Source of the DNA: Podarcis gaigeae
Lineage: Eukaryota
Strand: one strand, 5' to 3'
Assembly (NCBI GenBank): GCA_964106915.2
Contig: OZ066914.1
DNA length: 64,000 nucleotides
In this document: positions 22,294-41,318 of the stretch, piece after piece
Layout: each line of letters starts with the position of its first letter
Numbering within the stretch: the stretch's first letter is position 1
Program-made: the position numbers and the translations under genes
The notes under the pieces: generated by a model
Told to the model about the DNA's origin: nothing
Database searches by the model: none
What the model saw: the letters and a program-made list of their open reading frames with translations, nothing else

Positions 22294-22527
22294 ATTCTTA
22301 AGGAAATCAGCCCTGAGTGCTCACTGGAAGGACAGATCGTGAAGCTGAGGCTCCAATACTTTGGCCACCTCATGAGAAGAGAAGACTCCCTGGAAAAGAC
22401 CCTGATGTTGGGAAAAATTGAGGGCACAAGGAGAAGGGGACGACAGAGGACGAGATGGTTGGACAGTGTTCTCGAAGCTACCAACATGAGTTTGACCAAA
22501 CTGCGGGAGGCAGTGGAAGCCAGGAGT
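22294..22527 (+). mobile_element. Bov-B (RTE) LINE fragment
   Basis: Translates ILKEISPECSLEGQIVKLRLQYFGHLMRREDSLEKTLMLGKIEGTRRRGRQRTRWLD, the Bov-B ORF C-terminus. Confidence 0.95.
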
Positions 22528-22559
22528 TTCTTCCTTTGGTCCTGAGTTTGAGAGTTTTC

Positions 22560-22765
22560 AAAGTCCATCTTTGAAGCTATCAGCCAATCACCCATTCCCA
22601 CACCCTTCTGAGTAATACCCCTCCCCATCCTCTCACTACATATAAGGGTCCGGTGACTTCTGTTTCAGTGTATCTGATGAAGTGTGCATGCACACGAAAG
22701 CTCATACCAATAACAAACTTAGTTGGTCTCTAAGGTGCTACTGGAAGGAATTTTTTAATTTTGTT
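22560..22765 (+). mobile_element. Penelope-like element terminal (pLTR/3') fragment
   Basis: TATATAAG-like motif, hammerhead core and AGTTGGTCTCTAAGGTGCTAC end, typical of reptile PLEs. Confidence 0.8.
22670..22707 (+). ncRNA. Minimal type I hammerhead ribozyme motif
   Basis: GTAT-CTGATGA-A-GTGTG(CATG)CACAC-GAAA-GC-TC-ATAC. Both catalytic boxes are present, with stem I GTAT/ATAC, a 5-bp stem II and a palindromic AGCT in place of stem III. Confidence 0.8.
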
Positions 22766-22845
22766 TCAAAGTCCATGACACCTTTGGTAACGGCTGTTCT
22801 CCAATTGGGAAAACTCTCAGGACAGTGTTTCCCAATTGTCGGTGT

Positions 22846-22938
22846 TTATACTACATTTTTAAAAATTTGCCTTGAGAGAGTCTTTAAACCTCTTTTGCTG
22901 ACCACCAGCATTATACTTTCCATTTTTAAGTTTGGAGG
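22846..22938 (-). mobile_element. RTE-clade LINE fragment
   Basis: Encodes SKLKNGKYNAGGQQKRFKDSLKANF. Homologous to 40925-41005. Confidence 0.85.
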
Positions 22939-24879: not shown

Positions 24880-25228
24880 CAAGGTAGTATAGTGGTCTCT
24901 AAAAGGTCTCCCTTCCAGGTACTGACCGTATCCACATTTGCTTATCATTAACAACCTGGAAGACTCATCTGCCTTCAGACGATACTCTAGGGTCCAACTT
25001 AATATTCCTCAAACTCTTGACCTATCTTGCGAGGTTGTTACAAGGATTGCTAGGATGACATTTATGAAACACTTTCTTTAGGTACTAGAGAAAGAACTTA
25101 GTAAGTTATTACTGTGCTGTAGTTGTTGTCAAACTGCTTAGAGGACAAAAAAAAATATCACTTCATAAAAACTAAGGAAAAATCTGAATGGTTAAGGATT
25201 TTATAATAGGTAATGCTTACTGGATACT

Positions 25229-25530
25229 CCATTCTTAAGGAAATCAGCCCTGAGTGTTCACTGGAAGGACAGATCCTGAAGCTGAGACTCCAATATTTTG
25301 ACCACCTCATGAGAAGAGAAGACTCCTTGGAAAAGACCCTGATGTTGGGAAAGATGAAGGGCACAAGGAGAAGGGGACGACAGAGGACAAGATGGTTAGA
25401 TAGTGTTCTCAAAGCCACCAACATGAGTTTGACTAAACTGCGGGAGGCAGTGGAAGACAGAAGTGACTGGCGTGCTCTGGTCCATGGGGTCATGAAGAGT
25501 CGGACACGACTAAACGACTAAACAACAACA
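25229..25530 (+). mobile_element. 5'-truncated Bov-B LINE
   Basis: Bov-B C-terminus to ...ALVHGVMKSRTRLND*, with (CAA)n tail. TSD ACTGGATACT at 25219-25228 and 25531-25540. Confidence 0.96.
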
Positions 25531-25810
25531 ACTGGATACTTCATGCACATTTCAGCTGACTTATACCCCAAATATCTGAAACATCACTTCCTTCCCTACA
25601 GGCTCTATTGGGAGTTGAGTTCAGCCAGTGGGGTGGGTGGGTGGGGGAACAGGACCTCTTGGTTGTTCTACAGCCCTCAGAAATGGTGGGCAAATGATGG
25701 GCTCTGCCCTAACCTCCATCTGCCCCCACCTACCTGCTTTCTTACTGTCCAGCTGTCCAGAGGGTAGCACTGCTGGTCATCTTCCTTCTTAGTCTTAGTG
25801 TTGGCCTTGC

Positions 25811-34814: not shown

Positions 34815-35425
34815 GGTAATGGATGTAGTTCAGTGGTGAAGCAAGTGCTTTGCATGCAGAAGGTACCTGTTTCAATCTCTGACATCTTCATAAAGGGTTG
34901 GGAGAAACCGCTGCCTGAAAATCTGGAGTGGGAGCTGCTGCCAGTCTGCATGGACAAAACTGAACTGTTGTTGTTGTTTAGTCGTTTAGTCGTGTCCGAC
35001 TCTTCGTGACCCCATGGACCAGAGCACGCCACGCCCTCTTGCCTTCCACTGCCTCCCACAGTTTGGTCAAACTCATGCTGGTAGCTTCGAGAACACTATC
35101 CAACCATCTCGTCCTCTGTTGTCCCCTTCTCCTTGTGCCCTCCAACTTTCCCAACATCAGGGTCTTTTCCAGGGAGTCTTCTCTTCTCATGAGGTGGTCA
35201 AAATATTGGAGTCTCAGCTTCAGGATCTGTCATTCCAGTGAGCACTCAGGACTGATTTCCTTAAGAATGGATAGGTTTGATCTTCTTGCAGTCCATGGGA
35301 CTCTCAAGAGTCTCCCCCAGCACCATAATTCAAAAGAATCAATTCTTTGGTGATCAACCTTCTTTATGGTTCAACTGAACTAGGCAGACCAATAGTCCGA
35401 CTCAGTATAACATAGCTTCCTATGT
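34815..35425 (+). mobile_element. Squam3-like SINE interrupted by Bov-B
   Basis: Head GTAGTTCAGTGGTGAAGC...TTTGCATGCAGAAGG. Resumes at 35373 and ends GCTTCCTATG. Confidence 0.8.
34967..35372 (-). mobile_element. 5'-truncated Bov-B LINE
   Basis: MRREDSLEKTLMLGKLEGTRRRG...KSRTRLND*, with (CAA)n tail. TSD AACTGAACT at 34958-34966 and 35373-35381. Confidence 0.96.
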
Positions 35426-40629: not shown

Positions 40630-41318
40630 ACATGGAAACCAAAATGCTTGTTTACAAAGCTATTGTACTACCAACCTTACTATATGCTTGTGAAACATGG
40701 TCCACTTATAAACGCCATCTCCAACTCCTCGAAAGATTCCATCAACCGTGTCTCCGAACAATTTTGCACATCGCTTGGGAAGACAGGCAAACTAATATCA
40801 GTGTACTGGAAGAAGCAAAGATCACCAGTGTTGAAGCAATGATTCTTCAACATCAACTTCATTGGACTGGTCATGTTGTACCGATGCCTGATGATCGTCT
40901 TCCAAAGCAACTACTCTATTTCGACTTAAAAATGGAAAGTGTAATGCTGGTGGTCAACAAAAGAGGTTTAAAGACTGTCTCAAGGCAAATCTAAAAAAAT
41001 GAAGTATAAACACTGACAACTGGGGAACACTGGCCTGAGAGCACTCCAGTTGGAGAACAGCCTTTACCAAAGGTGTTGTGGGCTTTGAAGACACTCGAAC
41101 TCAGGATGCAAGGGAGAAACGTGCTAGGAGGAAGGCATGCTTAGCAAATCCACACCATGATCAACTCCCACCCGGAAACCCATGTCCCCACTGTGGAAGG
41201 ATGTGTGGATCCAGAATTGGCCTCCACAGTCACTTATGGACTCATTGTTAAAACTGTGTTTATGGAAGACAATCTTACTCGGCTGCAAGTGATCGCCAAA
41301 GAAAGAAGAAAGAAAGAA
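40630..41318 (+). mobile_element. 5'-truncated RTE-clade LINE (not Bov-B)
   Basis: TKMLVYKAIVLPTLLYACETW...QLHWTGHV..MPDDRLPKQLLY, then a frameshift. A C-terminal C2H2-like CPHCGR...GLHSH motif and a GAA-rich tail follow. Confidence 0.93.

Follow-up and report, generated by a model that had tools for sequence, protein, structure and literature searches.

Does an apparently complete hammerhead ribozyme, found in a short repeat of the lizard Podarcis gaigeae, cleave RNA where it stands, or was it carried there as a passenger, and what might such a motif do for the element that carries it? These questions were addressed with a stretch of 64,000 nucleotides from contig OZ066914.1 (the window) and with the genome from which it comes.

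Anatomy of the hammerhead motif

An earlier note on this DNA had described a hammerhead ribozyme on the plus strand at 22670-22707, and the 38 bases and all the fold elements it named are indeed present. Stem I is formed by GUAU (22670-22673) and AUAC (22704-22707), with 4 bp. The core CUGAUGA lies at 22674-22680 and is followed by a bulged A at 22681. Stem II pairs 22682-22686 with 22691-22695 (5 bp) and is closed by the loop II CAUG, so that stem and loop together make a perfect 14-nt palindrome. GAAA is found at 22696-22699, and the palindrome AGCU (22699-22702) stands in for stem III. From the hammerhead consensus, cleavage is predicted on the plus strand at 22703/22704, 3' of C17 (22703) in the triplet CUC. 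In the numbering used here +1 is 22670, C17 is +34 and the predicted cut product starts at +35. The motif has each feature of a minimal type I hammerhead: a CUGANGA and GAAA core with U16.1-H17, helices I and II, G10.1-C11.1, a bulged base after A9, a palindromic 15.1-16.1 (15.2-16.2) and no loop III. This assignment draws on the sequence, a descriptor scan and compensatory changes over three families of the same genome.

A loose hammerhead core gave five matches in the window compared to 2.2 expected, which is not significant alone. The full descriptor (core, stem II of at least 4 bp, stem I of 4 bp and UH) matched only at 22670-22707 in the window, and 5 of 300 dinucleotide shuffles of the window also gave a match. 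Folding of the 38-mer was no better than that of its shuffles (z -0.08). With Rfam, no hammerhead was detected at E<=10 in the 20-26 kb part of the window, where 12 weak, unrelated matches were seen, and the whole window gave no match at the gathering score, so that a covariance model does not place the motif among the hammerheads. The Rfam hammerhead models expect a helix III. The 34-nt hammerhead core has 10,633 exact copies genome-wide and its reversed control has none; therefore, a chance origin of the motif is excluded.

A truncated terminal repeat inserted into an older repeat

The note had also placed the motif in a Penelope-like remnant, and the parent element, with RT and GIY-YIG, was found. 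The remnant is a 190-bp, 5'-truncated 3' pLTR of a Penelope-like element (PLE), presumably of Neptune type, on the plus strand at 22577-22767; its 5' boundary may be 22575. The genome of the same organism (1.51 Gb, 211 contigs) was searched with 22535-22770, and 40 of 1,310 candidates were scored. Among these 40, the best matches span 22577 to about 22767 with 94-96% identity, and other copies extend upstream of 22577 into the GIY-YIG end of an ORF. The remnant aligns to both pLTRs of a full-length element, L106, and contains neither the optional tail of about 35 nt nor any ORF sequence.

A 13-bp target-site duplication flanks the remnant, with its left copy at 22556-22568 and its right copy at 22764-22776. 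The first 4-5 nt of the right copy are common to the 3' end of the element. An empty paralogous site at 41089-41120 has one copy of the duplicated sequence. Between the left copy and the element lies an 8-nt filler (22569-22576) that starts with 7 nt reverse-complementary to a portion of the target. The insertion split an older host repeat on the minus strand (22526-22936), which we take to be the 3' part of an RTE-like LINE and which has 81-88% identity to 40924-41120 of the window on both sides of the insertion. The same site of this repeat family was struck at three loci (22556-22776; L188; L098/L126) with different junctions, which points either to a preference for this target sequence or just to its great abundance. 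Three LINE fragments (22294-22526, 25228-25532 and 34967-35271), 93% identical, presumably come from the 3' end of a BovB-like LINE; the first of them adjoins the host repeat on its upstream side.

Compared to the majority of its 29 nearest copies, the window copy has private differences at four clear positions, 22628, 22639, 22651 and 22678; at one further differing column, the 29 copies are themselves split. Contigs of related organisms have one extra C behind 22600. DNA contigs from three related organisms span the unique flanks but break in the repeats.

The parent element

L106, one of 10 loci retrieved in full, is complete. It consists of a pLTR with a hammerhead, an 897-aa ORF and a second pLTR, the hammerhead of which lies 3,010 nt on. 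A search with the N-terminus of the ORF gave 56 matches, and intact 897-aa ORFs were found in L105 and L106. The ORF of L106 has the architecture RT, zinc linker, GIY-YIG. Both long ORFs searched against Pfam (L043, L044) contain RT (PF00078) and GIY-YIG (PF01541) in one frame, above the curated cut-offs, and a 195-aa YIG-containing endonuclease fragment of L006 gave no Pfam match. The family also has the pLTRs with hammerhead, the inverted truncated partners and the optional 30-40-bp tail of EN+ PLEs. Its nearest named homologues are uncharacterised turtle RT proteins, with 60-73% identity. Between RT and EN, the linker of L106 reads C757-x4-C762-x2-C765, or CX4CxxC, and the accessible text of PMC8557442 gives a CX2-5CxxC linker as a mark of Neptune and Nematis elements. 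The placement in Neptune as opposed to Nematis was inferred from this linker and the vertebrate host, rather than from a tree with named elements. Most long copies share 97-99% identity, so the family is in part young. A frame of 262 aa that resembles the C-terminus of a different PLE, presumably a Poseidon-like one, adjoins a family copy at L037:152-937.

Copy number, subfamilies and conservation of the ribozyme

A 31-nt motif downstream of the hammerhead has 16,530 exact copies genome-wide. The earlier note had stressed the complete CUGAUGA core, and this stands for the window copy but not for the family, which reads CUGAAGA (37 of 39 copies at the first loci). U at position 7 was found in 7 of the 10,633 exact matches, the window copy among them. 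Both forms fit the hammerhead because position 7 of its core is free. A separate CUGAUGA subfamily was considered and rejected, as the seven copies are scattered and have mixed flanks.

In the main family, 47 of 48 single-position variants in stem II are uncompensated and one is compensated; as expected, the copies decay like neutral DNA after insertion. These variants and the more than 10,000 identical motifs in the genome do not support the motif as something special to this locus. A different picture was obtained between families. When other stem lengths were allowed, the pattern search gave 33 matches, which include two further families (L244-L248, L250, L263; L253, L255, L257) with C or U at position 7 and different loops II. 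Of these two, one is itself a PLE, whose endonuclease has 85% identity and whose TATA spacing is unchanged. Base pairs were counted in six hand-picked sequences, two per family, whose core and three outermost pairs of stem II had been dictated by the search pattern. Both partners vary in 4 of the 10 pairs, and 95% of the cells are paired. Since the structure is kept across lineages with compensatory changes, the ribozyme is under selection in the master elements. A palindromic loop II as a required handle for dimers was rejected, as the loops of two other families are not palindromic.

Two side observations concern the subfamilies. First, 614 copies lack C17, and among the 100 of these matches listed, 82 have T, mostly on one subfamily background, 9 A and 9 G; those with T are likely a C17U lineage, which still obeys the NUH rule. 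Second, the AUG in loop II (22688-22690) is in frame and open into the N-terminus of the ORF in 6 of the 12 older-subfamily copies that have a tail. In the younger subfamily, this frame is closed after nine codons, and 89 of 91 copies have a new AUG at about +98. The start codon may thus have moved downstream from inside the ribozyme, where it lies in Poseidon_Ac (PAc) of Anolis carolinensis, a weak indication given that the length of a T-run varies.

Possible cleavage at this locus

We consider the window copy to be, very probably, a passive relic: a truncated end repeat of a PLE in an older repeat, with the hammerhead a likely passive passenger. This reading is favored because neither a partner in the window nor a host gene was detected. 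The search for a second hammerhead copy covered the whole window, in which 548 bases are N. The gene search gave no Pfam match in 450 of 480 stop-to-stop ORFs of at least 52 aa; it covered the ORFs that start up to 60.7 kb, and a search of this kind misses short exons. As it lacks helix III, the ribozyme would need a partner, and the window copy is likely inactive on its own.

The note had expected poor cleavage as a monomer and better cleavage as a dimer, in agreement with the published behavior of the class: according to the accessible text of PMC4209133, a minimal motif of Schistosoma had no activity as a monomer and low activity as a dimer or trimer. An active dimer of the motif studied here would rest on three 4-bp helices, and its AGCU duplex is predicted at about -3.9 kcal/mol. 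Dimer cleavage was reportedly also described by Lunse et al. in 2016. The best predicted dimer is not the AGCU-paired form but a 14-bp stem II duplex (-25 kcal/mol). In a predicted transcript that starts at +1, the pair probability of stem I is 0.05-0.16, and it is about 0.7 with 8 more upstream nt.

For cleavage in trans with a second copy, as the note had proposed, no partner was detected in the window and no host exon among the ORFs searched, and the genome offers more than 10,000 potential partners. The window copy could be transcribed from its own promoter or within a plus-strand host transcript and be cut together with another RNA of the family, with or without protein. Its core and stems are intact, it retains promoter-like boxes, the potential partners are identical, and young elements with intact ORFs (L105, L106) could supply protein. 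The accessible part of PMC11167929 reports that the ribozyme of PAc, a lizard PLE, cut only with the element protein, and that an RNA with a single ribozyme was cut once this protein was added. Against this stand the three short helices, the predicted preference for the stem II duplex, the poor cleavage of dimers reported in the accessible text of PMC4209133, a private T>C that alters the TATA-like box at 22639, and the fact that no host exon was detected. Activity in trans is therefore improbable for this copy.

Co-option of the window copy by the host, as a regulatory self-cleaving element, would fit with an intact motif and with a change of position 7 to the U of the textbook core. An intact 38-mer is unremarkable, however, because the copy has only about 2-3% divergence from its subfamily. 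Position 7 is free, six other copies share the U, and no gene context was found. We regard co-option as extremely improbable. The motif is most likely a passenger, and more can be learned from the family.

5' ends of the family copies

The 5' ends of 97 copies, out of the first 100 listed matches to the motif 3' of the cut, were mapped against L106. The sample comes from the first 4.35 Mb of one contig (C1) and is mostly of the younger subfamily, and 46 of the 97 copies are arms of 23 inverted pairs. A pile-up was seen around the first base of stem I: 37 of the 97 copies end at -5 to +3, which is 4.1 per nt over these 9 nt, compared to 20 at -394 to -6 (0.04-0.11 per nt). Within the ribozyme, 21 end at +4 to +19 and 5 at +20 to +32. 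Only 2 end at +33 to +37, none of them at the predicted cut (+35), and 7 end at +38 to +49. The remaining 5 extend past the reference. When inverted pairs are counted once, 35 of 74 events end at -5 to +3, including 21 of 51 unpaired copies. For the genome as a whole, copies that start at +35 cannot exceed a few hundred, since only nine A and nine G were found among the 100 listed matches without C17. At the other end, the tail is present in 49 of the 97 copies and absent from 48.

Many copies that begin at stem I carry one extra base. Genome-wide, 3,131 copies have a non-templated base (not T) before +1, and among the 100 of these matches listed it is G in 72, A in 17 and C in 11 (p about 3e-18 for the G excess vs 30%). 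Among the 97 mapped copies, a G stands before 6 of 8 ends at +1 vs 12 of 68 other ends (p=0.002). The sequences upstream differ among the G-bearing copies (n=44), and the TTG expected of a fold-back at stem I was found in only four of them.

A pause or fold-back of the RT at hairpins, or a splice acceptor (TTTCAG/T), might produce the same pile-up, with the extra G added as by a terminal transferase. In 14 of the 23 inverted pairs, one arm ends at the pile-up, and the 14-nt stem II palindrome offers microhomology. Fold-back at the hairpin does contribute, since the 21 ends at +4 to +19 include many second arms of pairs. Yet the unpaired copies end at the pile-up too (21 of 51), the peak lies 5' of the hairpin rather than at its 3' foot, only +1 shows the excess of G, and a second family keeps the TATA spacing. 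A splice acceptor would recall the Penelope intron of D. virilis, which ends at helix I according to the accessible part of PMC4209133, but it is not favored: the copies have no upstream exon in common, since they differ in the sequence that precedes the pile-up. On balance, an origin of the pile-up in pausing, fold-back or splicing is possible but unlikely.

As a separate observation, the junctions at four loci (L091, L094, L095, L104) are complex and include short pieces of the 5' half of the ribozyme, repeated or inverted, which suggests repeated template jumps of the RT at the 5' end of the RNA.

Promoter-like boxes upstream of the ribozyme

Three putative promoter boxes precede the hammerhead on the plus strand: a CCAAT-box-like motif (22583-22590), a C-rich, Sp1-like box (22618-22626) and a TATA-like box (22639-22646), with TATAAG starting 29 nt before 22670. 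The CCAAT, Sp1 and TATA labels follow general promoter consensus sequences. At 22639, where the window copy has its private C, all 29 nearest copies have T. The younger subfamily, the source of most ends at +1, has a weaker TATA (TATAGAAG). In the second family, whose endonuclease has 85% identity, TATAAGG and TTCAG are found at unchanged spacing within DNA that has otherwise diverged. We place the probable transcription start zone at 22665-22672 on the plus strand, with an initiator-like TCAGT (22665-22669) and a main start at G22670, on the strength of the 37 of 97 ends and the extra G. The earlier note had missed these boxes, the protein need of a lizard PLE ribozyme and the lack of 5' ends at the cut.

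In other retroelements, the RT copies the cap as one extra base. Because 5' ends with an extra G are found at stem I and none at the cut, the data point to a capped transcript that starts with the ribozyme and to uncut RNA as the template. We therefore propose, tentatively and as possible rather than probable, that the hammerhead is the 5' end of a capped RNA from an LTR-like CCAAT/TATA promoter, that the thousands of copies of 100-135 bp are run-offs akin to strong-stop products with the cap copied as the extra G, and that cleavage products are never inserted. If true, the ribozyme would be an off-switch gated by dimer or protein, which acts by decapping or by removal of the RT start, and not a processing step. 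It would also mean that the transcription starts of PLEs can be mapped from genome sequence alone.

A model by Cervera and de la Pena assigns the ribozyme another role. In that model, it cuts both pLTRs, and the 3,010-nt unit is ligated to a circle that serves as the RT template. Two direct-repeat motifs at this distance, a structure conserved across families and partial tandems in which the 5' pLTR reaches back into the ORF end (L067/L106, L072) all agree with it, and ends at +35 would also be absent since ligation restores the motif. The same structures are explained by read-through of tandem masters, however, and the commonest copies end at +1, as a linear RNA predicts. In PAc, moreover, cleavage mutants inserted normally in vitro, so cleavage was dispensable for insertion there (PMC11167929, accessible text). 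A circular template thus appears quite unlikely for this family.

A possible life cycle

Under the proposal of a capped, linear template, the life cycle of the family would run as follows. A promoter of CCAAT/TATA type in the pLTR would give a capped RNA whose first base is that of stem I. The RT of the element would then begin inside this RNA, either near +98 or near +135. A start in the 5' pLTR would run off at the capped end after about 100-135 nt and leave tiny copies with an extra G. A start in the 3' pLTR of a longer RNA would give longer, variably truncated copies and could stop upstream of the promoter, as may have happened to the window copy at about -93. Cleavage would require two motifs paired through AGCU, probably with assistance from the element protein, and would either take a 34-nt capped leader off the RNA or leave the RT start and the ORF on different fragments. 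Cut RNA would then not be inserted because the cut removes the capped leader or the RT start site. Two RT start sites are known in PAc, where the RT starts internally at either end of the tail in vitro (PMC11167929, accessible text), and the two classes of 3' ends seen here (49 and 48 copies) match them.

As one among more than 10,000 copies of a ribozyme class known since 2014, this locus is unremarkable, and the element identity, boundaries, duplication, copy number and motif integrity are established. The family pattern of 5' ends bears on what PLE hammerheads are for, which the accessible part of PMC8557442 calls unclear. Ends at stem I with an extra G, and none at the cut, support on the scale of a genome what was found in vitro, namely that the template is uncut RNA. 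The pattern accounts for the fact that minimal hammerheads are mostly short inserts on their own, and it names a start site open to 5' RACE. The young intact copies make a protein-assisted cleavage assay feasible for a second PLE clade. A literature search, which covered largely papers available without subscription, did not find the pattern of starts at stem I with an extra G.

Comparison with known systems

Minimal hammerheads in PLE pLTRs, including those of turtle and snakes, have already been published (PMC4209133), as have pLTR promoters (PMC2377424, PMC6765202); the sources were accessible in part. Like the motifs of PMC4209133, the one studied here has no helix III, a palindrome in its place, an extra nucleotide between 9 and 10.1, G10.1-C11.1 and a 4-bp helix I, and occurs mostly as single dispersed copies. 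It differs in its 5-bp helix II, compared to 7-8 bp in the Schistosoma families, and in that its copies are highly uniform (10,633 exact), unlike the families described in the accessible text. The parent element resembles the Neptune/Nematis EN+ PLEs, as far as PMC8557442 is accessible, in its single ORF with RT, CX2-5CxxC linker and C-terminal GIY-YIG, its pLTRs, its inverted 5'-truncated partners and its 30-40-bp tail.

PAc (Frangieh et al. 2024, PMC11167929) is also a reptile PLE with a ribozyme near the start of the ORF. In the accessible text, it likewise has two classes of 3' ends, with and without tail, and no sign of cut RNA as template, and RNA-seq ends at the cut are absent. In contrast to the family studied here, PAc belongs to the Poseidon clade without the zinc linker, and that text makes no mention of 5' ends that cluster at stem I and carry an extra G. 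Penelope of D. virilis (Schostak et al. 2008, PMC2377424) likewise has its promoter and transcript start in the pLTR. According to the accessible part, that promoter is internal and TATA-less (Inr/DPE) and comes with an intron, whereas the boxes found here lie upstream (CCAAT/TATA-like), as in the U3 of an LTR, and no intron is evident.

Animal non-LTR retrozymes (bioRxiv 10.64898/2026.07.22.740005), as described in the accessible text, are likewise short units derived from pLTRs with a type I hammerhead. Short direct tandems are only occasional in our family (L091, L095), and the locus in the window has a single truncated copy with a target-site duplication and no tandem array, which sets it apart from a non-LTR retrozyme.
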